The notes: generated from the sequence alone by a model not told the origin. A stretch of DNA of 64,000 nt from Bacteroidales bacterium (GCA_045597465.1 JAZLKG010000057.1:21979-85978); one strand, 5' to 3'; shown: positions 1,815 through 15,843, counted from the stretch's first letter. A program made the numbers and translations.

Positions 1815-4658
1815 ATGTCCGAAATTGAAGATGAGGCTCTGGACCTCGAGAACATCCACGTGTATGGCGCGAGGGTCCACAACCTGAAAAACATCGACGT
1901 TACAATACCACGAAACCAACTCACCGTAATCACCGGATTGTCGGGAAGCGGAAAGAGCTCACTGGCCTTCGACACCATCTTTGCCGAGGGACGCCGCAGG
2001 TATATGGAAACCTTCAACGCATACGCCCGTCAGTTTATGGGCGGTCTGGAGAGGCCCGACGTTGACAAAATCACTGGACTGAGCCCCGTAATCAGCATAG
2101 AGCAGAAATCCACCAACAAGAATCCCCGCTCCACAGTGGGCACCATCACCGAGATCTACGACTTCCTCCGACTCTGGTTCGCAAGGGCTGGTGAGGCCTT
2201 CAGCTACGAGACCGGCGAGAAAATGGTGCGCTACACCGAGGACCAGATTTGCCGGCTAATCACACAGCAGTACGGCGGCAAGAAGGTGGTGATATTAGCT
2301 CCCGTAATCAAAGGACGAAAGGGTCATTACCGCGAGCTTTTCGAGCAGATACGCCGAAAGGGATACATTCAGGTGCGCGTGGACGGCGATATCAAGGACA
2401 TAATCGTAAATATGAAAACCGACCGCTACAAGGTCCACAATATCGAGATTGTGGTGGATAAACTTGTGGTGCCCAAGGATTCGGAGACTGGCGGAGGCAT
2501 CGAGCGTCTGCGCGATTCAGTGAAGACCGCCCTCAACCTCGGCAAGGGAATCCTGATGCTACTCAACCACGAGACCGGCGAGGTGCGCCACTTCTCTAAA
2601 CTCTTAATGTGTCCCACAACGGGCATATCATACAAGGACCCCGCGCCGACAAACTTCTCATACAACTCGCCGTCAGGATTCTGCCCAACCTGCAAGGGCC
2701 TGGGAATCATCAACAAGATAGACGTTACCAAGGTGATCCCCAATCCCGAACTCTCGATAAAGAAGGGAGCCATAGCGCCGTTAGGGAAATATCAGGACAA
2801 CTTTGTATTCAAACAGTTGGAGGCATTGGCCGAGAGAGAGGGCTTCAGCCTCGACACACCATTCAAGGATATTCCGGCTGAGGCGCAGGATATGGTACTC
2901 AACGGAAGCGCCGAGCCATTGCACCTGGAGTGGATGAGAATGTACGGATCGTCGCAGTGCACCTACGACGGCGTGATGAAATACCTCGACAATGCCGCAG
3001 ACGACGAGGACACCGCCGACCTGGCCCTCAAATATTCAGCCGAGTGCGAATGTCCTGAGTGTCAGGGCCGACGACTCAACAAGGAAGCCCTCAGCTACAG
3101 GATTGCCGACAAGAATATCGCTGAGCTCTCAACTATGGACATTGAGGATTTGGGCGAGTTTCTGGCAGGCGTGGATGATAAGTTGACTACCAAACAGAAA
3201 AAGATTTCCACCGAGATACTCAAGGAGATAAAGACCCGCGTGGGATTTATGCACGACGTGGGATTGGATTACCTCAGCCTTTTCCGCACGGCCCAAAGCC
3301 TCTCTGGAGGCGAGGCTCAGCGCATCAGGCTTGCCACACAAATTGGATCCAAGTTGGTAAACGTGCTTTACATTCTCGACGAGCCGAGCATTGGTCTGCA
3401 TCAGCGCGACAACGACAAGCTGATAAACTCGCTGAAGACCCTCCGCGACGCGGGCAACTCAATAGTGGTTGTGGAGCACGACAAGGATATGATAAAAAAC
3501 GCTGACTACGTGATAGATATAGGCCCTGGCGCAGGACGCTTGGGCGGAAAACTCGTGGCGGCGTGCACACCTCAGGAACTGGTGAAGTTAGATACCAAAA
3601 CCGCGCAATACATAAACGGAACCCTCGACGTGGAACTTCCTCCACAGCGTCGCGAGGGCAACGGCAAATTCCTGACTATCAAGGGTTGCCGAGGAAACAA
3701 CCTCAAGAACGTGGACCTTACGATTCCGCTCGGCAAAATGGTGCTCGTAACGGGAGTATCAGGCTCGGGAAAATCCACAATAATCAACGAGACCCTGCGT
3801 CCGATACTCACTCAGAAATTCTACCGCTCGCTTCAGATTCCCAAGGAATACGATTCCATAGAGGGCATCGAGAATATCGACAAGGTGATAGAGGTGAATC
3901 AGGACGCCATTGGACGCACTCCAAGGAGCAATCCGTGTACCTACACCAATCTTTTTGCTGATATCCGCGCGCTCTACGCCGAACTTCCGCAGTCCAAGAT
4001 AATGGGCTACAAGCCTGGCCGTTTCAGTTTCAACGTGAAGGGCGGACGCTGCGAGGAATGTCAGGGAGCGGGCGTAAAGACCATCGAGATGAATTTCCTT
4101 CCCGACGTTTACGTGAAGTGCGACGCCTGTGCCGGCCGACGCTACAACCGTGAGACTCTGGAGGTTAAGTACAAGGGCAAGTCTATTTCCGACGTTTTGG
4201 ATATGACCATAAACCGCGCCGCCGAGTTCTTCGAGAATGTCCCAAAGATTCTCAAGAAACTTAAGGCCTTGCAGAATGTGGGAATGGGTTACGTAACCCT
4301 CGGACAATCTGCCACAACGCTCTCAGGCGGTGAGGCCCAGCGCATTAAGCTCGCCACCGAGCTCGCCAAGACCGATACAGGCAAGACTCTCTACATTCTC
4401 GACGAGCCCACCACAGGTCTCCACCTCGAGGATATCCGCGTCCTTATGCGCGTGCTCAACGCACTGGTCGACAAGGGCAACACCGTCCTCATCATCGAGC
4501 ACAACCTCGACGTTGTAAAGTCAGCCGACTACATTATCGATATGGGTCCCGAGGGCGGCAAAGGCGGCGGCCAGATAATAGCCCAAGGCACTCCCGAGGA
4601 GATTGTAGCTAATGGCGTGGGATACACGGCCAAGTATCTGAAGGGAGAGCTGAGGTAA
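1815..4658 (+). CDS. uvrA: excinuclease ABC subunit UvrA
   Basis: In-frame ATG at 1815 gives MSEIEDEALDLENIHVYGARVHNLKN... Two ABC modules (GLSGSGKSS and GVSGSGKST Walker A, LSGGEAQR signatures) and CxxC zinc modules. The 103 codons upstream in the tracked ORF are low-complexity and unlike UvrA. Confidence 0.97.
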   Translation: MSEIEDEALDLENIHVYGARVHNLKNIDVTIPRNQLTVITGLSGSGKSSLAFDTIFAEGRRRYMETFNAYARQFMGGLERPDVDKITGLSPVISIEQKSTNKNPRSTVGTITEIYDFLRLWFARAGEAFSYETGEKMVRYTEDQICRLITQQYGGKKVVILAPVIKGRKGHYRELFEQIRRKGYIQVRVDGDIKDIIVNMKTDRYKVHNIEIVVDKLVVPKDSETGGGIERLRDSVKTALNLGKGILMLLNHETGEVRHFSKLLMCPTTGISYKDPAPTNFSYNSPSGFCPTCKGLGIINKIDVTKVIPNPELSIKKGAIAPLGKYQDNFVFKQLEALAEREGFSLDTPFKDIPAEAQDMVLNGSAEPLHLEWMRMYGSSQCTYDGVMKYLDNAADDEDTADLALKYSAECECPECQGRRLNKEALSYRIADKNIAELSTMDIEDLGEFLAGVDDKLTTKQKKISTEILKEIKTRVGFMHDVGLDYLSLFRTAQSLSGGEAQRIRLATQIGSKLVNVLYILDEPSIGLHQRDNDKLINSLKTLRDAGNSIVVVEHDKDMIKNADYVIDIGPGAGRLGGKLVAACTPQELVKLDTKTAQYINGTLDVELPPQRREGNGKFLTIKGCRGNNLKNVDLTIPLGKMVLVTGVSGSGKSTIINETLRPILTQKFYRSLQIPKEYDSIEGIENIDKVIEVNQDAIGRTPRSNPCTYTNLFADIRALYAELPQSKIMGYKPGRFSFNVKGGRCEECQGAGVKTIEMNFLPDVYVKCDACAGRRYNRETLEVKYKGKSISDVLDMTINRAAEFFENVPKILKKLKALQNVGMGYVTLGQSATTLSGGEAQRIKLATELAKTDTGKTLYILDEPTTGLHLEDIRVLMRVLNALVDKGNTVLIIEHNLDVVKSADYIIDMGPEGGKGGGQIIAQGTPEEIVANGVGYTAKYLKGELR

Positions 4659-4734: not shown

Positions 4735-5160
4735 CTACTTCTTTCTCTTGAAATGTCGGAAATCAGACCCGACGGTTCCCTTTGCAAACGAAGTTCCTAC
4801 CATTTGCCATTCCATCTCATCCTTGGTGAGTTTTGTGATATTGTAGTCCCTTCCAGGATTTTTGTCTGACAATTCGGCGTCGAGATGGATTACATTTTCC
4901 TCTATTCGATATGACCTTGTATGATAGCTGTCTCCTGCAAAAATATCATAAACGTGTACGTCCACATTGTTGTCAGCCTTGAAATTCCACTCTAAGAAAC
5001 CATCCTGCATAAAGTATGGATATTCCTCGTAGGTCTCAGCCCATTCTCCAATGATATTTTCCTGATTGATAGTCATATCATCATCCTTGTTGCATCCAGA
5101 GGACGCAACCGCAACTGCGCAAATTGCGCATGCGTACATTGTATTTGTAAATCTGTTCAT
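4735..5160 (-). CDS. small lipoprotein, function unknown
   Basis: 141 aa. SpII-type signal ending in a lipobox (AVASSGC NKDD). Confidence 0.7.
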   Translation of the reverse strand: MNRFTNTMYACAICAVAVASSGCNKDDDMTINQENIIGEWAETYEEYPYFMQDGFLEWNFKADNNVDVHVYDIFAGDSYHTRSYRIEENVIHLDAELSDKNPGRDYNITKLTKDEMEWQMVGTSFAKGTVGSDFRHFKRKK

Positions 5161-5237: not shown

Positions 5238-5300
5238 AAAAGTATTCACAATACTCCCGCCAATATACAATATGCCGTCTTATCCCATAGCACTACTATT

Positions 5301-5374
5301 CATTCCGAAAAATGTTGCTGACAAGAAAAATACGTTCCAATTTTTGTGAAATTTTACATTTTTCGGAACGAATG
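5301..5374 (-). terminator. inverted repeat downstream of the ATPase gene (possible terminator)
   Basis: CATTCCGAAAAATGT (5301-5315) pairs with ACATTTTTCGGAACGAATG (5356-5374, 2-nt bulge). It lies between the ATPase stop and the next promoter. Confidence 0.3.
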
Positions 5375-5487
5375 ATTGTAGGATTTATAAAGTATCATAT
5401 TTGATACAAAGTTATCTGTTTTTTTATCAATCAGCCAAAATTATTTTGCTTGGGATTCGCAATGAAAGTGGACAAATCCCGATTTTT

Positions 5488-6765
5488 TTAATTCTTCAAA
5501 CAACCTACAGGCACCACCATTACACCATCGGGGCGCTTGTAGGCGAATTGTCCAACACCAGTAAGCACCATAAGAAAACTTGGGGCTTTCATCTTGTCTG
5601 TATCAATTTTTTTTGACAAGGAGATTAGGTTCTTCGCACCCTCATCTATAAGTTTGTCGCCCCCCAATTTTATCTCTATCAATGCGTAAGATCCGTTCCT
5701 AAGGTGGATTACGGCGTCACATTCCAATCCTGTTTTGTCGCGGTAATGATATACTTGTGCATCAATGGCATCGGCATAAACACGCAGGTCCCTCACACAC
5801 ATTGTCTCGAAGAGAAAGCCCATAGTGTTGAGGTCGTTGATCAAATCCTTGGGGGACAAACCCAAAGCGGCCACAGCAATGGATGGATCTACAAAATAAC
5901 GTGTATCAGCACTCCTGATGGCAGTTTTTGAACGCAAGTTTGGATTCCATGCGGTCATATCCTCTATTACAAAAATCTTTTTGAGAGCATTGATATAGTC
6001 ATAAATAGTGTTTTCCGACAAGTTCTTTGTGTCGTTGTTTTGCATATCCTGCATTATCATATTCAGCGAAGTCTGAGTGCCTTGATTCCTTGAATATGAA
6101 CGCATCAGCAGTTTTGCCCTTTCAACATTTCTGTTGGTGTTGTCTGCTCTGGAGATATCGGACTCCACAATGGCGTCGTAATAATCGAAAGCCAGAGAAA
6201 GGGCGTCCTCCCCATCAAGGAAAGTAGCACTTGGCCATCCGCCCCTGCATATCAGGAAGGCCAAAGTTTCAAGGTTGATATCCGCAATGCCTTTCAATTG
6301 AATATCCTTATTGCCAAACAGCTCTTCGATACTTACAGTGCCCGAAGATTCTCCGGATTCGAACAGCGACATTGGACGCATTGTAAGTTTCGAGAACCGT
6401 CCTGTGCCAGTGTGATGGATATCTTCGGAAGATGGAGGCACGGCAGATCCAGTAAGGATGAATTGGCCTGGCTCGTCACGCATATCCACCTCGTATCTTA
6501 TTGCGTCCCAAAGTTTTGGAGCCAACTGCCATTCGTCAATCAGTCGAGGAGTTTTGCCTAAGAGCAGAGATTGTATGTCCACTTCTGCCATACTGAGATT
6601 TTTGGCTTGAACCTTTGGGTCGGCCATATATAACGAACTTTTTGCAATCATCTTGCTGGTCGTTGTTTTTCCACACCATTTAGGTCCTTGCACCAGAACG
6701 GCACCAATCCGTCTTAACTTCTTGGCTAATAATGCGTCTGCTATTCGTACTTTATATTTTTTCAT
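5488..6765 (-). CDS. AAA-family ATP-binding protein (AAA_14 / DUF4143-type architecture)
   Basis: 425 aa. Walker A GPKWCGKTT near the N-terminus. Overall layout and C-terminal region resemble the widespread 'ATPase, DUF4143' family. AT-rich relative to its flanks. Confidence 0.8.
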   Translation of the reverse strand: MKKYKVRIADALLAKKLRRIGAVLVQGPKWCGKTTTSKMIAKSSLYMADPKVQAKNLSMAEVDIQSLLLGKTPRLIDEWQLAPKLWDAIRYEVDMRDEPGQFILTGSAVPPSSEDIHHTGTGRFSKLTMRPMSLFESGESSGTVSIEELFGNKDIQLKGIADINLETLAFLICRGGWPSATFLDGEDALSLAFDYYDAIVESDISRADNTNRNVERAKLLMRSYSRNQGTQTSLNMIMQDMQNNDTKNLSENTIYDYINALKKIFVIEDMTAWNPNLRSKTAIRSADTRYFVDPSIAVAALGLSPKDLINDLNTMGFLFETMCVRDLRVYADAIDAQVYHYRDKTGLECDAVIHLRNGSYALIEIKLGGDKLIDEGAKNLISLSKKIDTDKMKAPSFLMVLTGVGQFAYKRPDGVMVVPVGCLKN

Positions 6766-6814
6766 ATTATTGTTGTCTGATTTTCAGTTGCAAAGATAGT
6801 AAAATTATTTAATT

Positions 6815-6906
6815 ATTGAGGAATTTGGACAAATTTTATTGAGGAATTTGGACAAATTTCATTGAGGAATTTGGCCGTAATTTATTGAGGAATTTGGCCG
6901 TTTTTT
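6815..6906. repeat. four tandem 23-bp direct repeats (iteron-like)
   Basis: ATTGAGGAATTTGGACAAATTTT x2 then ATTGAGGAATTTGGCCGTAATTT / ATTGAGGAATTTGGCCGTTTTTT, starting at 6815, 6838, 6861 and 6884. Located 50-140 nt upstream of the ATPase start codon. Confidence 0.9.
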
Positions 6907-6967
6907 TTGTTTTTCCACTCCAATAATCTCTCATAAATTTTGCGTCTCATTTTCAATACCTTATAAA

Positions 6968-6999
6968 AAAATTTACACATTTTCGAGGTTTGTGCAAAA
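6968..6999 (-). promoter_or_regulatory. copy 2 of the 31-bp promoter repeat, oriented toward the ATPase gene
   Basis: Identical 31 bp (6969-6999). Minus strand reads TTTG (6995-6998), 19 nt, TAAATTTT (6968-6975), so the -7 box is one base off consensus. Confidence 0.5.
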
Positions 7000-7103
7000 C
7001 TTTCTCATTTATTTCCGTACTTGTTTTTTTTGTCATTTGCAAATACTATATTGCACAATTACAAAAAATCATTATCTTTGCGTCATTACCACAAAACTAA
7101 TTT

Positions 7104-9158
7104 ATGAAGACAATGAAGAAAAAGAAACTCCTTTCTCTTGCATTGGGTATGGCCGCAATGCTTTCGGCCAATGCCCAGAATCCTTATCTCCCTCTCTGGG
7201 AGCATGTGCCTGATGGTGAGCCCCGAGTATTCGAGGATCCTGACAATCCAGGCAAGATGAGAGCGTATATCATCGGCTCTCACGACGTTAAGTACAACGG
7301 ATACTGCGGACCTGATATCCGTATGTGGTCGGCACCCGTTGAGGACCTCTCGCAGTGGCGCGATGAGGGCAGTATCTTCAAGTATTACATTGACGGACAG
7401 TGGGATATAATGTTTGCCCCCGACCTCGTGGAGGTGTTCGACAAGAAGGCTGGCAAGAAGGTTTACTACCTCTATCCACACTCGCGCGGATGGCAGAGAG
7501 TGGCCACAGTATGCAAGGGCGACCGTCCAAACGGCCCCTTCACACCCATAAACCTCACTGAGGACGGCCACAAGTGCGTTGACGGCTCAATGATAGATTT
7601 CGACCCATCGGTATTCATCGAGCCAGTCACCAACAAGAAAGACCCAGACTTCGCCACTGGATTCCGTGCATACGTTTTCTACGGATTCCAGCACTCGACA
7701 GCCGCCGAGTTAGACCCAAACACAATGTACTCGGTACGTCCCGGCACTCAGATCCACGACTATTTTATCCCGGCATCAGCAGCCTACGGAAAGGTAAAGG
7801 ACCCCGAGGGCACCAAGTATCCGGCCCTCTACAAGGACCAGAACCCCGGCGAGTTCAACTTCTTTGAGGCATCATCTATCCGTCAGGTAGGCAACAAATA
7901 CGTGATGGTATTCTCGGGCTACAGCGGACCAGACTACGGACTCGGCTCCACAAACTCGGCACTGCGCTATGCCTACGGCGACACCCCACTCGGTCCTTGG
8001 AGATCGGGCGGTGTATTGGTGGACAGCCGCGGAGTGGTTCCAAACGAGGACGGCACCCATCTTGTAGGCCGCAACTCGGCTCACAACACCCACGGTTCGC
8101 TTCAGGAAATCAACGGTCAGTGGTACGTATTCTACCACCGCCCACCACGCGGATTCGGCAACGCACGTCAGACCATGGTGGCCCCTGTAAAGATTGTCTG
8201 GGACAAGAAGAAGGTGACTGTCGGCGGACAGGTTCGCATCACCGGCTACGACCCATACGCTCCCGACAACGAGTGGAAGGCTCAGGCCTCCAACGGAATG
8301 TGCTATACCGGTGCTGAGGTTACCTCCGAGGGATTCCAGATCTACGGTCTGCCTCCTTACAAATATTACTCGGCTGGTATTGCGGCCTACATGAGCGACC
8401 AGCAGTGGATGCAGGACAATCACGACAACTGGAGCAACCACATGGATCTCGCAGGCATCAAGAACGGCGGAATCGTGGGATTCAACTACTTCGGTTTCGA
8501 GGGTCTTGTAGCTGACTCTAAGGGTGTTAAAGCCTTCTCTGGAACAAAGCCCGGCGACGACGCCACTCTCTGCCTCAACCTCACTCCAAGAGTGAAGGAT
8601 GCTTTCAAGATTCACGTAATGATAGACGGCCCATACGCCAACAGCACCTGGAAGGGCAAGGAACTCGGCGTTATCGAGGTACCTGCCAACTCGGCAGAGC
8701 GTCCAGCAATGTACACACTCGCCACTCCTCAGGTGGAGGGCCTCAAGGGCAAGCACGCCATCTACCTCGTAGTGGAGGGTCCCGAGGTAAAGGAGCCTGA
8801 GATGCCAGCCTGGGCACGCCGCCAGGGTCCACAGCGTCCAATAGGACTCATGGATCTCCACGGCATCGGCTTCCAGAGCAACGACACCAAGATTGCGCGT
8901 CCAGAGGTTCCACAGGTCACCATCAAGGCCGACGGAGTGCGCCTACAGATACCTGCCACACCTATCTACTTCACCAATCAGAACGGATACGCCGAGGCCA
9001 ACCGCTATCAGGTTTACGGCAAGCTCTCTGATGCTTCCGTACTTGAGGCAACCTCCAACAATCCCGAGGTCAAGTTCCAGATAGGCAAGATAGCCGACGG
9101 CCGCGCCACCATCAAGGCCACCTACCAGGGTCAGGAGAAGATTTTCCTGATTAACTAA
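7104..9158 (+). CDS. secreted glycoside hydrolase, GH43-like five-bladed propeller with C-terminal beta-sandwich domain(s)
   Basis: 684 aa with a signal peptide (MAAMLSANAQ). The N-terminal NPYLPLWEHVPDGEPRVFEDPDN...IIGSHD pattern recalls Bacteroides GH43-type enzymes. Family assignment is from memory only. Confidence 0.6.
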   Translation: MKTMKKKKLLSLALGMAAMLSANAQNPYLPLWEHVPDGEPRVFEDPDNPGKMRAYIIGSHDVKYNGYCGPDIRMWSAPVEDLSQWRDEGSIFKYYIDGQWDIMFAPDLVEVFDKKAGKKVYYLYPHSRGWQRVATVCKGDRPNGPFTPINLTEDGHKCVDGSMIDFDPSVFIEPVTNKKDPDFATGFRAYVFYGFQHSTAAELDPNTMYSVRPGTQIHDYFIPASAAYGKVKDPEGTKYPALYKDQNPGEFNFFEASSIRQVGNKYVMVFSGYSGPDYGLGSTNSALRYAYGDTPLGPWRSGGVLVDSRGVVPNEDGTHLVGRNSAHNTHGSLQEINGQWYVFYHRPPRGFGNARQTMVAPVKIVWDKKKVTVGGQVRITGYDPYAPDNEWKAQASNGMCYTGAEVTSEGFQIYGLPPYKYYSAGIAAYMSDQQWMQDNHDNWSNHMDLAGIKNGGIVGFNYFGFEGLVADSKGVKAFSGTKPGDDATLCLNLTPRVKDAFKIHVMIDGPYANSTWKGKELGVIEVPANSAERPAMYTLATPQVEGLKGKHAIYLVVEGPEVKEPEMPAWARRQGPQRPIGLMDLHGIGFQSNDTKIARPEVPQVTIKADGVRLQIPATPIYFTNQNGYAEANRYQVYGKLSDASVLEATSNNPEVKFQIGKIADGRATIKATYQGQEKIFLIN

Positions 9159-9190
9159 CAAATTACAGATTCTCATACAATACTTAGAAA

Positions 9191-9226
9191 AGCCATCGCT
9201 TTCAGATGAGAGCGACGGCTTTTTTT
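9191..9226 (+). terminator. rho-independent terminator after the GH43-like gene
   Basis: AGCCATCGCT (9191-9200) pairs with AGCGACGGCT (9211-9220, one mismatch), followed by T6. Confidence 0.7.
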
Positions 9227-9239
9227 GTACAAAATAATT

Positions 9240-9280
9240 TTTTGCCCAATTCCCGCAAATACATTATCTTTGTAGCAATC
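9240..9280 (+). promoter_or_regulatory. 40-bp promoter cassette, copy 1
   Basis: TTTTGCCCAATTCCCGCAAATACATTATCTTTGTAGCAATC. TTTG at 9241-9244 and TATCTTTG at 9265-9272 (20-nt spacer) match the Bacteroides -33/-7 consensus. ATG follows at 9308. Confidence 0.75.
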
Positions 9281-9307
9281 AAAAAATCCATAAATCGAAA
9301 ATCAAAA

Positions 9308-10876
9308 ATGAAGACACTGCCATTAGGAACACAGACATTCCAGATTCTACGTGAGGAAGATCAGTTGTATGTCGATAAGACAAGATACGTATATGACCTT
9401 ACCCACTTTTACCGCAACGTCTTCCTCTCGAGGCCGAGGCGTTTCGGAAAGTCGTTGCTGTGCGATACCTTCAAGATGTATTTTGAGGGCAGGAAGGATA
9501 TGTTCCAAGGGCTGGCGATTATGGATCTGGAGAAAGACTGGAAGAAGTATCCGGTGATTCATCTGGATCTGTCGCTCCGCAAGGACAGTGCCGAGCGTCT
9601 CAGAAAATCATTGGGAGAACTTCTCAAGGATTATGAGGACATTTACGATATTCCAGTGGATGCGTCACGTGAGGTTTCGGACCGATTGAGTTCAATTATC
9701 AAGACAGCCTACCGTAAGACAGGCAATCGTGTAGTTGTTTTGCTTGACGAGTACGATGCCGCTCTTATGTATGCAGTTGACAACAAGGAACTTTTCGCCG
9801 AAATAAGGAACGAACTAAATGATTTTTTCACTCCACTGAAAAAACTTGATTCCTGCATAAAATTCCTCTTCATAACTGGAATTTCGAAATTCTCGCAGGT
9901 TTCGATATTCTCGGCGCTCAACAATCTGGTGGATATCAGCCTTGATCCAAAGTATGAGGGTGTCTGCGGATTCACCAAAGAAGAGATGCGCAGGGATTTC
10001 CCTGAGTATGTCCAAATAATAGCAGACAAATACAATTGCGATTTGGAAACTGCGTATGAGGAACTTAGGAAAAATTATGATGGCTATCATTTTTCTGAGG
10101 AAATGACCTGTGATGTCTTCAATCCTTTCAGCATTCTCAATGCTTTCGACAAGCGGAAACTCAATTCTTTTTGGTTCGATTCGGCAAGTCCTTCGGCATT
10201 GATAAAGTTGGTTGATAAGTTTGATTTGAATATCGGAGATTTGGAGAATTGTGAAGCCGGTCTTGACAGTTTCTCTGTGCCTATCGAGAGTATCGATGAT
10301 CCGATTCCCTTGCTTTTTCAGTCGGGATATCTTACCATCAAGGATTATGATATGGAGGTTGATAGTTATACACTCTCATATCCCAACAGGGAAGTGCGTG
10401 TGGCATTGGCAAAGCAACTTTTGCAATACAAGACCAAGAATCCACCCGAACTCACCAACTTCTCCAATAGTTATAAGGCTTTTTGGAAGAGTGACGATCT
10501 TGACCGTTTCCTTCTCAGTTTCAAGGCATTCTTGAAGGGATTCCCGTTTTCGCTCAACAATTCAGATAAGAACGAGAAGCATTATCACGGCCTTCTCTAC
10601 ACCGCGTTGGTTTCTTTCGGCGCTGACGTCTTTGCCGAGAAGGAGCAGTATGAGGGCAAGCCTGATATCATCCTCAAAATGCCGAATACAATCTACATTC
10701 TGGAGCTGAAGTACGGGAAATCTGTCGGCACGGCCCTGTCTCAGGCCAAGAAGAAAGACTATGCCGGAGAGTTCGCCGACGACAAGCGTCCTGTTAAAAT
10801 TGTCGGAATCAACTTCCTGGAAGAGGAGGTTGAGAACGAGATTTTCAAGTATAAGGTGAAGGTAGTGAGGGAGTAA
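9308..10876 (+). CDS. AAA-ATPase-like protein with C-terminal PD-(D/E)XK nuclease domain (PF09820 + PDDEXK_9-type architecture)
   Basis: Start MKTLPLGTQTFQILREEDQLYVDKTRYVYDL. P-loop-like RPRRFGKSL. C-terminal KPDIILKMPNTIYILELKYGKS (D...ExK). The upstream 34 codons of the tracked ORF overlap the promoter cassette. Confidence 0.8.
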   Translation: MKTLPLGTQTFQILREEDQLYVDKTRYVYDLTHFYRNVFLSRPRRFGKSLLCDTFKMYFEGRKDMFQGLAIMDLEKDWKKYPVIHLDLSLRKDSAERLRKSLGELLKDYEDIYDIPVDASREVSDRLSSIIKTAYRKTGNRVVVLLDEYDAALMYAVDNKELFAEIRNELNDFFTPLKKLDSCIKFLFITGISKFSQVSIFSALNNLVDISLDPKYEGVCGFTKEEMRRDFPEYVQIIADKYNCDLETAYEELRKNYDGYHFSEEMTCDVFNPFSILNAFDKRKLNSFWFDSASPSALIKLVDKFDLNIGDLENCEAGLDSFSVPIESIDDPIPLLFQSGYLTIKDYDMEVDSYTLSYPNREVRVALAKQLLQYKTKNPPELTNFSNSYKAFWKSDDLDRFLLSFKAFLKGFPFSLNNSDKNEKHYHGLLYTALVSFGADVFAEKEQYEGKPDIILKMPNTIYILELKYGKSVGTALSQAKKKDYAGEFADDKRPVKIVGINFLEEEVENEIFKYKVKVVRE

Positions 10877-10886
10877 GCATCAGGAA

Positions 10887-11498
10887 ATGAGCGTATTCTT
10901 CATTCCTGAGGAACATATTGTTGCTCAGTATTATATTATTGATTTTAACTTAATGTGGTGCGGAATTAAGGAAATGATTAAAGGAAGTTTTTATTTGTTT
11001 AGTATTAGCGGCTTTTGGATAGCATTGGTTTGTTTGATCGTTGGTATTTGGCAAGGAAATACATTAATAGTATTTACAGCGATTATAGGTCATTTGGCTC
11101 TCCTTGGTTACGCTATATATCTTTGTAGTGAGGAAAATGATAAAACAGAACTATTTATAAAACTCAACAAGGATTATATTGTCTTGAAATCATTTGAATC
11201 ATATAGATTTTATTTTGCTTTTTTTGAAGGTCGGAGAGAATATGTCATATTTGAGATTGATGGATACAGATATCTTGTAACTATTCTTGATAGGAAATTG
11301 TCTTTGGCAGTTTTTAAATTTGAAATTGATGAAATTAATGAAAGAAATGCCTATATAAAGATTAGGGAACGTTTTAAAGGTGGCCCGACTGGAGAATGGA
11401 ATTATCTTAGGGATAGTTATGCTAAGTCATATATTAGCATGATAGATTTTAAAGATCTTATTAAAGAATATAGAACAAATAAAGAGCAAGTGCAATAA
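10887..11498 (+). CDS. hypothetical membrane protein (2 predicted TM helices), very AT-rich
   Basis: 203 aa, starting 10 nt after the preceding stop. Hydrophobic segments FYLFSISGFWIALVCLIVGIW and LIVFTAIIGHLALLGYAIYLC. No family recognised. Confidence 0.6.
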   Translation: MSVFFIPEEHIVAQYYIIDFNLMWCGIKEMIKGSFYLFSISGFWIALVCLIVGIWQGNTLIVFTAIIGHLALLGYAIYLCSEENDKTELFIKLNKDYIVLKSFESYRFYFAFFEGRREYVIFEIDGYRYLVTILDRKLSLAVFKFEIDEINERNAYIKIRERFKGGPTGEWNYLRDSYAKSYISMIDFKDLIKEYRTNKEQVQ

Positions 11499-11506
11499 AT
11501 AATTTA

Positions 11507-11545
11507 TTGCCCAATTCCCAGAAATACATTATCTTTGTAGCAATC
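11507..11545 (+). promoter_or_regulatory. 40-bp promoter cassette, copy 2
   Basis: TTGCCCAATTCCCAGAAATACATTATCTTTGTAGCAATC. -7 box TATCTTTG at 11530-11537. ATG at 11564. Confidence 0.7.
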
Positions 11546-11563
11546 AGAAAATCGAAAATCACT

Positions 11564-12580
11564 ATGGTAACAATTGCAAATCCGATATATGACTCGGTCT
11601 TCAAGTATCTGATGCAGGATACGAGAATTGCGAGACTCTTGATTGAGAACCTTTTGGGATATCCTGTAGAGGATGTTGTGGTCAAGAACAACGAGTTCAT
11701 TCTGATAGATATAAATGAGCTCAAGCTCAGCCGTGTGGATTTTCAAGCCAAGGTAAAAATCTCTGATACTGAGACTCAGCTTGTTACCATAGAATTGCAG
11801 AAGGCTTTCCTCGATACTGAGTATATGAGATTTCGCCGTTACTTGGGCGAACACTATATCAACAACGAGAACTGCGTCTATAAGACTGTTGAGAAGATAA
11901 ACCCAAAGACGGGTGAGAAGTATCTGAAAATCGAGGAATATCCGAATCCAATAATACAGGTTTACCTCCTCGGTCACAACCTTCCCGAGATAGAGAATGC
12001 AGTTTCCAAGAGTCAGCTGAAATTTGTTGACCTTGACGGCAATGAAATCAAAGATGCAGGCAAGTCGCTCTTTGTGAAGAGCCTTACCCATCAGACCATA
12101 ATAGTCCAGATAAAGAAACTGCCTCAAAAGCCAATGCATAAATTGGAGGACATTCTCTCCATCTTCAATCACGAGGCCATTTTCCAAAACAAGGAGGAGC
12201 AGACCGTAAAAATAGAGGACTACTACGGCAAGTCGGAGGAGTATCAGATAATGGCCCGCCGCCTTCAGGAGGCCGCCGTTGACGCTGAGCTCCGCAAGAT
12301 GATGAAAGAGGAGGACGACCTTTGGCGAGAATACCGTCTTATGAAAGAGAACGAGCGCCTGAGAATGCAGGCAGCGGAGGCAAGGGGCGAGTCGAGAGGA
12401 TTGGAAAAAGGTCGTGCCGAGGGTATTGCCGAGGGCCGTGCCGAGGCTGAGGCCAAAGCCCACGAGGAGAAATTAGCTTCCGCCCTTGCGATATACAAGT
12501 CCGGCTCGATGCCGTTGGAGCAGATTGCGGCTATTATGAAGTTGGATGCCGGGGAGCTTGCTGAGTATGCGGGCAGGTGA
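11564..12580 (+). CDS. Rpn-family (YhgA-like, PDDEXK_2) recombination-promoting nuclease / putative transposase
   Basis: MVTIANPIYDSVFKYLMQD... N-terminus typical of the Bacteroidales PDDEXK_2 family. RVDFQAKV...TIELQK nuclease core. Charged coiled C-terminal tail (EGRAEGIAEGRAEAEAKA). Confidence 0.8.
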   Translation: MVTIANPIYDSVFKYLMQDTRIARLLIENLLGYPVEDVVVKNNEFILIDINELKLSRVDFQAKVKISDTETQLVTIELQKAFLDTEYMRFRRYLGEHYINNENCVYKTVEKINPKTGEKYLKIEEYPNPIIQVYLLGHNLPEIENAVSKSQLKFVDLDGNEIKDAGKSLFVKSLTHQTIIVQIKKLPQKPMHKLEDILSIFNHEAIFQNKEEQTVKIEDYYGKSEEYQIMARRLQEAAVDAELRKMMKEEDDLWREYRLMKENERLRMQAAEARGESRGLEKGRAEGIAEGRAEAEAKAHEEKLASALAIYKSGSMPLEQIAAIMKLDAGELAEYAGR

Positions 12581-12846
12581 TGAGAAAGTACCGAGGCCAT
12601 TCAGACAAATTCAGTAATTTTACCTTCGGTAATCATAGCGATTTTTTTGGTAATTTGTTTTGTCGTTATTACAAAGATGCTAAAAATTTCGCTAATTACC
12701 AAATTTTCAGTCACTTAAATTTAGTCGAACTCACGTTAAATTGATAAAAAGCAAACAAATACCATATATCAATACGATTGGTGAACAAGTTTTGTTTGAT
12801 GGATTGGAAGCATATTCAGAGGATTATATTATAGATTTTATAAAAA

Positions 12847-13764
12847 ATGTTACAGACTTATAACAAATTGTTAAATATTAAGCCAATTTGGGTGTCCATT
12901 TTAGGATGTGTGCTTACGTTGTTTTTACATGTTAACCCCAATACTTTGTCATTGTCATTAATAATAATGTGGTTGTTTTTTGCCGCATTATATATATATG
13001 AACATAATGACTTTATTTATAAAAAAAGTATTTTTGATAATATGTTTATATTGTATTTAATAATAATTATTGTATGTGGTATTGGGGTGATAGAATATTA
13101 TTGTCAACGTGTGAAGTCAAATGAAGGAATTGTGTGTGTAGGTTATGCATATAATAGTATGCAAGAATCTCGTTCTCATTGTATGGTGTATTATATGTAT
13201 TATTATGACAAAAATCTTAAATTAAATAAAGTTAAGGTTAATGGTTACTCCCAACACATAGATTTTAATACAAATGTTGTAATTTCTTTAGGAGGACCTC
13301 GTGGTAATTATATCAAGACAGCTAATCCAACGTGGAATGATTTAGAAAAATATAAATATCCAGTAAATTTTATAATGGATTCTGTAGAGCTCGGCAACGA
13401 CTCCTACGAATATGCGAAATATGAGCGAGATATCGCTTACAATAATTTTGGACTAAATATTGTTCAAATTGCAAATACGTTGAATGATGATGAAATATCA
13501 TTTATGAAATTAAATGGTATTTCAGAGACTATAAAGTGTAGGAATAATGGCACAGACACTTTCCTCGTCTATTCCAACATTAACCCGAAATTTTTCGATG
13601 GCTGGCACGTCTGCCCCGACAGCATCAGCACGCCGGAGAATTTCGCCAAGATAGAGGAGGGTGGATACGGCTATATCTTCCGAGGAAAGATATATTCCAA
13701 GGAAGAGACCGAGAAGTACTGGAATATCATCGAGCAGTACAAGCTGAGAGAGGCAGGGGAGTAG
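12847..13764 (+). CDS. hypothetical 3-TM membrane protein, paralogue A (conserved C-terminal module)
   Basis: 305 aa with three N-terminal hydrophobic helices. The C-terminal DTFLVYSNIN...VCPDSISTPENFAKI...GYIFRGKIYSKEE module is shared with 13844-14755. Confidence 0.65.
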   Translation: MLQTYNKLLNIKPIWVSILGCVLTLFLHVNPNTLSLSLIIMWLFFAALYIYEHNDFIYKKSIFDNMFILYLIIIIVCGIGVIEYYCQRVKSNEGIVCVGYAYNSMQESRSHCMVYYMYYYDKNLKLNKVKVNGYSQHIDFNTNVVISLGGPRGNYIKTANPTWNDLEKYKYPVNFIMDSVELGNDSYEYAKYERDIAYNNFGLNIVQIANTLNDDEISFMKLNGISETIKCRNNGTDTFLVYSNINPKFFDGWHVCPDSISTPENFAKIEEGGYGYIFRGKIYSKEETEKYWNIIEQYKLREAGE

Positions 13765-13776
13765 GGTAGAATAATT

Positions 13777-13816
13777 TTTTGCCCAATTCCCACAAATACA
13801 TTATCTTTGCAGCAAT
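13777..13816 (+). promoter_or_regulatory. 40-bp promoter cassette, copy 3
   Basis: TTTTGCCCAATTCCCACAAATACATTATCTTTGCAGCAAT. TTTG at 13778-13781 and TATCTTTG at 13802-13809. ATG at 13844 or 13853. Confidence 0.7.
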
Positions 13817-13843
13817 GGGAAGCCTCTTTTATTTAATAGTTAA

Positions 13844-14755
13844 ATGTTAGAAATGAAGAAATATTTTCATTGGATATGGTGCGCTATTTGGATTGTATGC
13901 GCATACTTATATGGGGTATATATTACCTCTCTGTGTGAATATGCTATTTGGACAACAATAGCAACAATTTTGTTTGTAATTTCTGCTATTGTTATGCCAT
14001 TCTTTTTCAAAAAGCATTTCGCAGGCTTTATAATAGGACCGATAGTTTCTGTTTTTATTACTTCGTTTTTGACAAGCGACAACATTTCAAAGAGATTGAT
14101 AGACGGTCCTACTTTTATATGCAAGTTTAATGTAACAGGATATGATCGTCCTAAGGGTCGTAGCTCTCTAGTTACTACTTTGGGGTATTATCATATTGGC
14201 AAATCGAAATATGAAAATGGAGTTAGCATAAATGATAAATTCCCTCAGGTTGAATGGGTTTATGTTCAATACAATTTTGTATGCAAAACTATGCTGCATT
14301 TGTACAGAGAAAAGGCTACTGACGAAGAAATAGAAAAAATCCGTGACTTCGCTTTTGTTGAAAACAATACCTTGTATACCTATCACGATTACTCGATGCT
14401 TCAGCCAGACTTGGACTATTATCAAGTAGGTTACAATTTGGTTTATAAGGCTGTTCCCGACAGCCTTGACAATCTTCGGTTCTCCGATGCTCTCGGTAAA
14501 CAACAGATCACAAAATACGAAAAACAGAACTACACCTCCATCCCCGACACCTTCCTCGTTTTCCGCAACATAAACGAGAATATCGACGACCGTTTCATAG
14601 TCTGCGCTCCCGAGGTAAACACTCCCGAAAACTGGGCGAAGATTTCCGACTATGGATACATTTTCCATTACGACGTCTATTCCAAGGAAGAGATCGAGAG
14701 CCAGTGTCAGCAGATAAGAAATTATGTGGAGAAGTATAAGGAGCTTCACAAATAA
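13844..14755 (+). CDS. hypothetical 3-TM membrane protein, paralogue B
   Basis: 303 aa with three N-terminal TM helices. C-terminal DTFLVFRNIN...VCAPEVNTPENWAKI..GYIFHYDVYSKEE module. The start could also be the ATG at 13853. Confidence 0.65.
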   Translation: MLEMKKYFHWIWCAIWIVCAYLYGVYITSLCEYAIWTTIATILFVISAIVMPFFFKKHFAGFIIGPIVSVFITSFLTSDNISKRLIDGPTFICKFNVTGYDRPKGRSSLVTTLGYYHIGKSKYENGVSINDKFPQVEWVYVQYNFVCKTMLHLYREKATDEEIEKIRDFAFVENNTLYTYHDYSMLQPDLDYYQVGYNLVYKAVPDSLDNLRFSDALGKQQITKYEKQNYTSIPDTFLVFRNINENIDDRFIVCAPEVNTPENWAKISDYGYIFHYDVYSKEEIESQCQQIRNYVEKYKELHK

Positions 14756-14768
14756 GCTCCCCAAACCC

Positions 14769-15710
14769 CTACTCTCTTCCCATCACCTTCTTGTACCCCC
14801 GTCGCCCCCAGACAAGCACAAAAGCGAATAGCAATCTTGTGCTGATAATCCATAATGCTGATATTCCCGTAACGGCCATTACAATGGTGTCCTCAAGCAT
14901 GGAGTGATTCATTATCAAGTGATAGTTTACGTCGTTGGCGTCCTTGCGGGTGATGAGGCCCTTCGATTCCAAATCCACCATCACTGCCGATCCGTAACTG
15001 ATGCCAAGCACATTGCCCACCAGCCACATATACGACGATTCCCTGGGAAGACCCATCACTGTCATCAGCGGGGCAAAGAACCTCGACATTGGCTTCAGCC
15101 AGCCGTAAGCCTCTATCAGGCGCTGGATAAACATTAGCGAGTAAATTATGCCGAACACCATGAGCACGGTTTTTATCTGCGACCATCCCCACTGCGCCAT
15201 CACCTCGCCGAATGTGCTGTCGGTATCAGCGCCAAGATATACGTACGCCTCGTCCATCTCGGGAAGCAGAAGATTAAGGTAGAGGGCTGATACAAACGCC
15301 ATTACGATTCGGATGAGGCCCATCTTCCAGAACGACGAGCCTGTCTTCCTGTTTATGGAGCATTCCATGGGCAACGCGTGGCATATCAGCACCATTATGC
15401 CCATTATGGTGGCCTGACGCATGGTCATAGGTATAGCCATCATAGCCGCTACTCCCGAGTATGTACCAGCCATGGCTCCCGATACGAACACTATGGCAGC
15501 CTCGCCGGGCAATCCCATGAAGTTGAACACAGGGTTCAGGTATCCTGCCAGCCATGCCAGCACTCCGAAATACTGGAGCAATACCACCGCCAATGATATA
15601 GGTATCATAAGTTTAAGGAGCCACGATGCGCTCTTCCATGTGCCGGGAATGGCCTGACGGAGACTCCATATAATCTTGTTGCCTGTAATGGGCTGTTCGT
15701 TTTCTTTCAT
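14769..15710 (-). CDS. nucleoside-recognition (Gate) domain membrane protein
   Basis: 313 aa polytopic membrane protein. It resembles the two-Gate-domain, FeoB-associated / spore-maturation-like family by overall pattern. Confidence 0.6.
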   Translation of the reverse strand: MKENEQPITGNKIIWSLRQAIPGTWKSASWLLKLMIPISLAVVLLQYFGVLAWLAGYLNPVFNFMGLPGEAAIVFVSGAMAGTYSGVAAMMAIPMTMRQATIMGIMVLICHALPMECSINRKTGSSFWKMGLIRIVMAFVSALYLNLLLPEMDEAYVYLGADTDSTFGEVMAQWGWSQIKTVLMVFGIIYSLMFIQRLIEAYGWLKPMSRFFAPLMTVMGLPRESSYMWLVGNVLGISYGSAVMVDLESKGLITRKDANDVNYHLIMNHSMLEDTIVMAVTGISALWIISTRLLFAFVLVWGRRGYKKVMGRE

Positions 15711-15843
15711 AATGTTTTTGTTTTTAAGCGGTGCAAAGGTAAATCAAATAATCCGTTATATGTGTTACCTTTAAGTGAACATTACATATACTTTTGCACA
15801 ATATTTGTGCGTTAGTAACAGAAAACAAACCACGTAAATCATT

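Follow-up and report, generated by a model that had tools for sequence, protein, structure and literature searches.

The 64,000-nucleotide (nt) stretch of Bacteroidales DNA analysed here (GCA_045597465.1, JAZLKG010000057.1:21979-85978; hereafter the window) carries five consecutive open reading frames (ORFs), P1–P5, all on the (+) strand, in which genes of two PD-(D/E)XK nuclease families stand beside genes for AT-rich membrane proteins. Several kinds of described system come close to parts of this region. Polymorphic toxin–immunity loci (Rhs/CDI-type), treated by Zhang et al. in 2012, are said to include orphan immunity genes and 3′ remnants of toxin genes. For one of the two nuclease families, DUF1703, the work of Knizewski from 2007 is reportedly the reference. 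This PDDEXK_9/DUF1703 family is multicopy and recombining, with an expansion in Cardinium, and is still uncharacterised (PMC6387759). Members of the other family, the recombination-promoting nucleases Rpn (YhgA-like, COG5464), form RpnL/RpnS intragenic toxin–antitoxin systems: they are toxic PD-(D/E)XK endonucleases kept in check by RpnS, a C-terminal product translated on its own (Zhong et al. 2023, PMC10400941), which carries strain-variable four-amino-acid repeats lying 8–20 residues from the internal start (PMC10400941). The rpn genes protect against phage and are over-represented in defence islands; their movement involves neither inverted repeats nor target-site duplications, their ends vary, and their arrays are ascribed by Zhong et al. 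to tandem duplication (PMC10400941). RpnA is reported to promote RecA-independent recombination (Kingston et al. 2017, PMC5350276). Finally, recombinase-associated acquired interbacterial defence clusters (rAID-1) have been described in Bacteroidales (Ross et al. 2019, 10.1101/471110; PMC12247911).

On balance, we favour reading the region as a composite, strain-variable accessory islet, in which orphan immunity-like membrane genes stand beside nuclease genes. It is made up of a resident DUF1703-type gene, an Rpn-type gene, an ORFan and two orphan members of a membrane-protein family. An initial annotation of the same DNA had proposed three promoter-headed units, two pairing a nuclease with a membrane protein and the third a membrane protein alone, with the logic of abortive-infection or defence modules in which a nuclease or nucleoside triphosphatase is coupled to a small membrane protein. 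The five ORFs are present where that annotation placed them (Table 1), and our data do not support reading them as three two-gene systems or as a new nuclease-plus-membrane defence system.

A 3.9-kb block next to a resident DUF1703-type gene

A scan for the core of the promoter repeat that heads P1, P3 and P5, covering 185,579 species-representative genomes, returned one locus, L009, from a Bacteroidales metagenome-assembled genome (MAG; SGB_5524). By blastn its nucleotide identity to the window is 94.9% across 5298–10877 and 93.8% across 14770–15817, while positions 10878–14769 are missing from it entirely; blastn and the junction alignment both show a clean indel. L009 keeps P1, at 96.6% amino acid (aa) identity, together with its promoter repeat, and there 3 nt separate the end of P1 from the stop codon of the gene for a Gate-domain membrane protein (hereafter Gate), which is convergent with P1. 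Since L009 retains P1 and lacks 10878–14769, P2–P5 form a presence/absence block of 3.9 kb and P1 is the resident gene. The earlier proposal that the block is accessory and the locus variable is thus borne out by a syntenic relative of about 95% nucleotide identity that lacks precisely this segment.

At the indel junctions we found only a short AAGTATAAGG...TAAG microhomology, and neither inverted repeats at the block ends nor a target-site duplication at the junctions. The composition of the block suggests foreign DNA. Deletion in L009 by recombination at the microhomology was considered and rejected, the junction sequence not being a clean fit; identity as an insertion sequence, transposon or integron was rejected as well, inverted repeats, target-site duplication and recombinase all being missing from the block. 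A Gate-anchored metagenome scan yielded 80 loci, none above 71% aa identity, in which synteny is not kept and no further alleles appear.

P1 carries the full two-domain architecture of the DUF1703 family. Both Pfam profiles proposed for it match above their cut-offs in hidden Markov model (HMM) searches, PF09820 (AAA-ATPase_like) at 2.4e-61 (207.5 bits, cut-off 26.1) and PF08011 (PDDEXK_9) at 1.5e-10 (41.4 bits, cut-off 25.5), and on reading the sequence the Walker-type GKS, DEYD and D...ELK motifs are all intact. What sets P1 apart from this recombining family is that it is stable next to Gate, being present in L009 and in a distant locus, L040, with the same convergent arrangement; it is not the variable element here. 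The initial annotation had called both nuclease families functionally orphan, which is right for PDDEXK_9/DUF1703 (PMC6387759) but not for Rpn, an anti-phage toxin–antitoxin type (PMC10400941).

P2, the gene that follows P1 in the window, is an AT-rich ORFan. It has no homologue but itself among 5.8 billion proteins and was assigned to no family by Pfam, NCBIfam, PHROGs or PADLOC, and comparison with P4 and P5 showed it to be unrelated to them. Its hydropathy profile contains three overlapping hydrophobic segments (residues 33–81), which we interpret as two spans; the membrane-segment counts given earlier, a two-span hairpin in P2 and three transmembrane (TM) segments each in P4 and P5, agree with hydropathy. 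The 10-nt spacing reported between P1 and P2 holds for the ORF as annotated, but with the start chosen by the gene caller, M23, the gap would be 76 nt. The only hint of what P2 might be, a weak DUF2244 match (E 0.08) together with the hairpin-plus-beta pattern, is of a membrane-anchored PH-like domain; a single-sequence AlphaFold model (predicted local distance difference test, pLDDT, 50.4) was too poor for a fold search. With P1 alone in L009, P2 an ORFan and the closest homologues of P3 solo (see below), the order of a nuclease followed by a membrane protein does not define functional units.

A promoter repeat and an Rpn-type gene

As the initial annotation had claimed, every unit begins with the same promoter: there are three copies of a repeat of 48–62 nt, heading P1, P3 and P5. 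P4 has no copy of its own and is preceded by a 266-nt spacer holding a gene remnant. The 48-nt core is 92–94% identical between any two of the three copies, all in direct orientation, and between copies 1 and 2 an identity of 90% extends across 62 nt, nearly reaching the start codons (repeat profile: TTTTTTGCCCAATTCCCNCAAATACATTATCTTTG). A 31-nt core pattern has 3 matches in the 64-kb window against 0 in 100 shuffles. Copies 1 and 3 hold the perfect Bacteroidetes promoter consensus TTTG-N20-TAnnTTTG (–33/–7; in copy 1, TTTG at 9241–9244 and TATCTTTG at 9265–9272), and the –33 element of copy 2 is TTATTG. Consensus sites number 12 in the window versus about 1 expected, and because the spacers of the other nine are unrelated to the repeat, it is more than a generic promoter. 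In the reading that we favour, it is the native promoter and 5′ untranslated region (5′UTR) of multicopy nuclease genes in the host species. An exact-match search for the repeat in loci of other species gave no matches, a sigma-70 promoter and terminator scan stayed at chance level except for the hairpin at 9196, and no Rfam element or tRNA was detected in the block. The membrane-protein genes are, as had been noted, more AT-rich than the nuclease genes and flanks: GC is 0.30 in P2, 0.33 in P4 and 0.38 in P5, against 0.44 in P1, 0.48 in P3 and 0.51–0.55 in the flanks. An inverted partial copy of the –7 region, ATCTTTGTAATAACGACAAAA, lies at 12658–12678 (–) in the P3–P4 spacer, facing P3; it is 76% complementary to repeat copies 1 and 2 and could be a remnant or an antisense promoter.

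P3 has 3,854 homologues, many bearing PF27070 (HTH_Rpn_C). Aligned with PDDEXK_2-annotated proteins of three comparison loci (L001, L004 and L008; alignment A2), it shares an N-terminal D..FK helix with invariant D10 and K14, and has D59, E77 and Q79, which are nearly invariant (in at least 90% of sequences); this PD-(D/E)XK core it has in common with Rpn nucleases. The likeness may extend to the C-terminal helical domain, the A2 family profile matching the RpnA(S) crystal structure (PDB 7th0) at E 0.0074 and P3's own C-terminus giving no PF27070 match, and it does extend to the tandem 12-nt repeats, which encode four residues each and differ in number between P3 and its 86% identical homologue P0036. 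P3 differs from described Rpn proteins in falling under the curated HMM thresholds (TIGR01784, 15.7 bits, cut-off 52.1), and its internal start is a candidate; it also matches phrog_3300, 'transposase', over its full length at 2.9e-5. The assignment to Rpn/PDDEXK_2 therefore holds by alignment and family evidence, whereas the HMM check with PF12784 gave no match. Its C-terminal domain, judged by sequence, probably doubles as an intragenic antitoxin, and P3 as a whole appears to be a self-contained Rpn-type module of the known intragenic toxin–antitoxin and anti-phage type.

As with other rpn genes, homologues of P3 occur singly, scattered among housekeeping genes, and neither inverted repeats nor target-site duplications accompany them. 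P0036, in the MAG that also contains L009, is a solo gene flanked by UvrD and FGE-sulfatase genes, P0037 (79% identical to P3) stands alone beside the gene for the acetolactate-synthase small subunit, and a distant locus (L079) has a solo Rpn gene directly after Gate. The P0036 copy, at L093, has a near-identical promoter repeat upstream. Because nucleotide similarity between P3 and P0036 runs from 11503, the –33 box of the repeat, to 12472, before the C-terminal helix-turn-helix, the transferable Rpn unit consists of promoter, 5′UTR and gene, with the C-terminus swapped; the last ~36 residues of P3 are replaced relative to close homologues. The 5′ edge of the unit is thus defined by the promoter repeat, in contrast to the variable ends reported by Zhong et al. 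(PMC10400941).

Similar arrangements occur elsewhere with other sequences. Locus L001 has three Rpn paralogues headed by at least 370 nt in common (2659–3030, 4752–5123 and 7892–8263), spanning the promoter and the first ~100 codons at 95–98% identity, except that the third copy drops to 80% in its upstream ~70 nt. Towards the 3′ end the paralogues diverge, and P4-family genes are interspersed with them in alternation, a pattern that suggests gene conversion or tandem duplication. In L008 a 99-nt repeat, 88% identical between its copies (8577–8675 and 9602–9700), heads a RhuM gene and a PDDEXK_2 (Rpn) gene. This is the portable-promoter phenomenon in another species, with a different sequence.

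A membrane-protein family, its large partner and the nuclease genes

The proposed paralogy of P4 and P5 holds for the C-terminal ~120 aa only (36% identity, 3e-16) and not for the rest of the proteins. Searches of Pfam, NCBIfam, PHROGs and PADLOC place neither in a family. Their own family is rare: for P4 there are 34 homologues, each from a Bacteroidales metagenome bin, and P5 has 54 representatives among 1.84 billion proteins, overlapping the P4 set via the C-terminal domain. The P4 family combines a hypervariable N-terminal TM region with nearly invariant C-terminal ~120 aa; both P4 and P5 keep all 16 invariant columns, P4 has the nearly invariant residues too, and orphan copies retain every invariant residue of the C-terminal domain. 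The AlphaFold model of P4 (pLDDT 86.5) predicts an alpha/beta domain and a small beta-barrel in addition to three N-terminal TM helices. Foldseek found no significant match to it in the PDB or BFVD: the best PDB match (E 0.056) is a low TM-score similarity between its beta-rich middle and small SSB/PriB-type domains, and two matches in BFVD (E about 5e-4) have TM-scores of 0.15–0.17. The family is absent from IMG/VR, and a reading as prophage superinfection exclusion therefore gained no support. Family genes have 25–34% GC in hosts of 35–48% GC, that is, 9–14 points under the host locus in most loci and 4–10 in L096 and L098.

Eight independent contexts of the family were examined (the window, L001, L004, L005, L008, L095, L096/L097 and L098/L099). 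In L096/L097 and L098/L099 the family member is the last gene of a tight operon, in which a protein of 1,105 or 1,144 aa, here called BIG, is followed by a paralogue of 310 or 313 aa and then by the P4-family member, with gaps of 2–13 nt or overlapping genes. BIG has a HELGHGIAGLEH (HExxH) motif and a glycine-rich hydrophobic segment; it has no match in Pfam, NCBIfam, PADLOC or PDB, and its plasmid matches are weak only. One of these is on the Bergeyella porcorum plasmid pQD2021 (L100, 35440–47757), where a weak homologue of the HExxH region (36.8% over ~110 aa) has as neighbours fragmentary deaminase-domain, SprB-repeat, PKD and type IX secretion system (T9SS) sorting-domain genes; the region looks like an array of toxin-cassette fragments.

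In the remaining six contexts the P4-family genes are orphans, and four of these stand beside BIG remnants (L008, L001, L005 and the window). L008_107 is equivalent to the C-terminal part of BIG, and L001_386 is BIG-like but truncated, its HExxH motif degenerate. In L005 a 53-aa chimera (8802–8963), in which the BIG N-terminus (80% identity to residues 21–61 of L098_1144) is fused to the C-terminal ~20 residues of a P4-family protein, is a deletion scar across a former BIG–TM–TM locus. In the window a 34-codon 3′ remnant abuts the P4 start, and it follows that the tail of the gene that once preceded P4 came, or was preserved, together with it and that the position of P4 behind P3 is secondary. 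The P4–P5 order also has a counterpart, since in L008 a P5-type 3′ remnant directly follows a P4-type gene. Across eight loci (window, L001, L004, L005, L008, L095, L096 and L098; alignment A4) most columns of the last ~60 nt of the family genes are invariant, while the proteins are otherwise only 30–45% identical across species. Such conservation at synonymous sites suggests recombination or recent transfer of the 3′ segment.

The family thus shares with polymorphic toxin–immunity loci a large protein with an enzymatic motif followed closely by tandem small paralogues, frequent orphans that retain 3′ pieces of BIG, patchy occurrence and low GC. The pattern of a small gene after a large gene is seen at the family level, and the window has the remnant only. 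By analogy with those loci, P4 and P5 would most likely be protective membrane proteins of an immunity-like kind, retained in the absence of a toxin-like partner.

There is some likeness to rAID-1 as well: co-directional short genes of at most 41% GC (P2, P4 and P5), an intergenic sequence repeated three times in the window, strain variability of the block, and orphan genes with remnants of an upstream toxin-like gene. The region differs in that the defining XerD-like tyrosine recombinase is missing from block and flanks, HMM searches finding no integrase domain in P1–P5, Gate, or the 684-aa and DUF4143 proteins upstream. Moreover, P2, P4 and P5 match no known immunity family, only three candidate cassettes are present, their neighbours are Rpn and PDDEXK_9 genes, and the repeats are promoter and 5′UTR copies in common with the nuclease genes.

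The association between the P4 family and the nuclease genes is real, and it has neither operon structure nor fixed order. An Rpn or PDDEXK_9 gene or fragment lies within 3 kb in 7/8 contexts. As background we used 877 kb of Bacteroidales DNA anchored on Gate, a core gene, where four such genes (about one per 220 kb) and no P4-family gene occur; the binomial P-value is 2.6e-10 at this background and 2e-3 at a tenfold higher one. The statistical link that the initial annotation asked about therefore exists on the side of the membrane proteins. In L001, L004, L095 and L096 the TM gene comes before the promoter of the nuclease gene, in L005 the two genes are on opposite strands, and L098 has no nuclease. 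In size the nuclease families exceed the TM family about 100-fold. A P3–P4 unit is contradicted by the remnant of another gene between the two, and by the TM gene elsewhere being usually upstream or on no fixed side; P1, P3 and the P4 family in two contexts occur independently of such a partner, the observation that the initial annotation had itself named as refuting the pairing. Searches with PADLOC-DB v2 models gave 0 families for all five proteins, and since no model matches P1–P5, the statement that no described system has this composition stands.

Two side observations concern the surroundings of such genes. All four background Rpn/PDDEXK_9 genes or fragments (L040, L047, L057 and L079) lie within 1.5 kb of Gate, with differing surrounding synteny; insertions may recur at the flank of Gate, or P1 may have been its neighbour for a long time. 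In L095 (5654–7873) a P4-family gene and a PDDEXK_9 gene are inserted in the histidine operon, between hisD and hisC.

Table 1. Features of the islet and its left border (window coordinates)
Feature	Position	Strand	Description
Terminator-like hairpin and T-run	9196..9215	+	Ends the upstream 684-aa gene; directly before repeat copy 1
Promoter/5′UTR repeat, copy 1	9232..9293	+	Heads P1; kept upstream of the L009 P1 orthologue
P1	9308..10876	+	522 aa, AAA-ATPase_like + PDDEXK_9 (DUF1703-type); resident gene, also in L009
Indel block, 3,892 bp	10878..14769		P2, repeat 2 + P3, remnant + P4, repeat 3 + P5
P2	10887..11498	+	AT-rich ORFan; TM hairpin and beta-rich C-terminal part; alternative start 10953 (M23)
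Promoter/5′UTR repeat, copy 2	11497..11558	+	Heads P3; begins at the P2 stop codon
P3	11564..12580	+	338 aa, Rpn-family (YhgA-like) PD-(D/E)XK nuclease; putative C-terminal RpnS-like helical domain
Candidate intragenic RpnS-type antitoxin ORF	12365..12580	+	In-frame start M268, ~15 residues before the repeats
Tandem 12-nt repeats	12410..12457	+	Encode GRAE-type four-amino-acid repeats of the Rpn hypervariable helix
BIG/L001_386-like 3′ remnant	12747..12848	+	34 codons, stops upstream, abuts P4 start; tblastn 47%, E 4.7e-7
P4	12847..13764	+	3-TM, beta-barrel, conserved C-terminal alpha/beta domain; orphan copy of BIG-linked Bacteroidales family
Promoter repeat, copy 3	13769..13830	+	48-nt core only; heads P5; 5 nt after the P4 stop codon
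P5	13844..14755	+	3-TM paralogue of P4, divergent subfamily; C-terminal domain in common

Of the labels given to the flanking genes, that of the Gate protein is correct (PF07670, 4.2e-14), and 'GH43-like' for the 684-aa protein at 7104–9158 (+) finds no support, with 0 Pfam or NCBIfam families even at E ≤ 10. Further upstream, an AAA_14 + DUF4143 ATPase (5488–6765, –) matches the PADLOC candidate defence family PDC-S01 at 5.3e-59. Its gene is 99.2–99.8% identical in nucleotides to the L009 copy, versus 89–95% in the flanks, which suggests a recent exchange between lineages; synteny with L009 breaks at 5298, just past this gene.

Competing explanations and significance

In the reading that we favour, the islet sits at the 3′ flank of resident P1, against the 3′ end of the Gate gene. 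P3 would have arrived with its own promoter and 5′UTR. P4 and P5 are orphan copies of a family whose members stand in tandem behind BIG at intact loci, and recombination or duplication would have put a repeat copy in front of P5. P2 and P4 would be transcribed by read-through from the promoters of P1 and P3. Several points weigh against this account. The polarity of the indel fits insertion here as well as deletion in L009, and P3 matches neither PF12784 nor PF27070 in Pfam at E ≤ 10. Models of toxin and immunity families match none of BIG, P4 and P5; the case for immunity consists of gene order, remnants, rarity and composition. Unlike polymorphic toxins, BIG shows only HExxH, no signal peptide and no domain of a kind recognised in toxins, trafficking or secretion, and a constant C-terminal domain with a hypervariable N-terminal TM part is unusual for immunity proteins. 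For the strong co-location with nuclease genes in 7/8 contexts, moreover, the account offers no explanation beyond shared variable islets.

It might be that P2, P4 and P5 are non-functional leftovers of horizontal acquisition, decaying beside selfish multicopy nuclease genes, and that local duplication gave rise to the common promoter as a by-product. Such islets often contain remnants and chimeric ORFs (the window remnant, L005_53, L008_107 and L008_190), the genes are AT-rich and foreign in composition, P2 has no relatives and the block is missing in a close relative. We nevertheless consider it unlikely that they are decaying. All three are intact, with 203–305 codons in DNA of 30–38% GC, where long frames should be rare by chance given that stop codons are AT-rich; the invariant columns are all preserved in P4 and P5, P5 has its own consensus promoter, and P4 is predicted to adopt a confident fold.

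The repeats could alternatively be the recombination joints of a recombinase-free array of the rAID or integron kind, with nuclease genes as landing pads, and possibly as recombination enzymes, where orphan membrane or immunity cassettes accumulate and are exchanged by recombination at the common promoter sequence. Repeats follow the stops of P2 and P4 by 0–5 nt, so that units run from repeat to repeat (2,265, 2,272 and ~1,000 bp), and the junction of TM-gene stop, promoter and nuclease is recurrent. The same repeat heads a PDDEXK_9 gene, an Rpn gene, P5 and, in the relative, a P3 homologue at a different locus; L001 and L008 have analogous repeats, and the 3′ ends of the family genes are highly conserved in nucleotides across species. 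The recombination activity reported for RpnA (PMC5350276) would fit too. On the other hand, there is no recombinase, the repeat occurs just three times in 64 kb with one exact-core copy in the relative's genome, the spacers after the stop codons share nothing between species except a generic –7 box, and rpn arrays have been put down to tandem duplication (PMC10400941). Since the only observed indel has its left end after the P1 stop codon and does not begin at a repeat, we rate cassette exchange as improbable. The bolder version, in which Rpn and PDDEXK_9 promoters are landing pads, and their genes perhaps the recombination engine, that assemble orphan cassettes from an undescribed BIG-HExxH toxin-like system, we regard as quite improbable; if true, it would be a recombinase-free counterpart of rAID and integron arrays in rumen and gut Bacteroidales.

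Pairing of each nuclease with a membrane partner for defence, in which the nuclease would sense or cut and the membrane protein act as effector or partner, and for which co-directional and tightly packed genes with one promoter per unit, the 7/8 co-location, the enrichment of rpn genes in defence islands (PMC10400941) and the PDC-S01 match of the neighbouring ATPase could be cited, is very doubtful in view of the P1 orthologue without P2 in the ~95% relative, the ORFan status of P2, the solo Rpn genes (the closest P3 homologues and that of L079), the remnant between P3 and P4, the varying or missing nuclease partner in L001, L004, L095, L096, L005 and L098, a TM family about 100 times rarer than that of P3, and the lack of any PADLOC match.

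The tempting call of a new defence system is thus withdrawn: adjacency and a common promoter are no evidence of a functional pair here, and a single close relative sufficed to split the proposed units. What is new in the composite islet is the P4/P5 family, its BIG partner and the portable promoter, and not a defence architecture. Three leads follow from it. The first is an undescribed membrane-protein family, with a confident and unmatched predicted fold, tied to a ~1,100-aa HExxH protein. The second is the strong, non-operonic co-location of this family with nuclease genes, which bears on the mobility of rpn genes and their surroundings, given that inverted repeats and target-site duplications are lacking. 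The third is a portable promoter and 5′UTR, common to accessory genes that are otherwise unrelated, where the Rpn unit has its 5′ edge.

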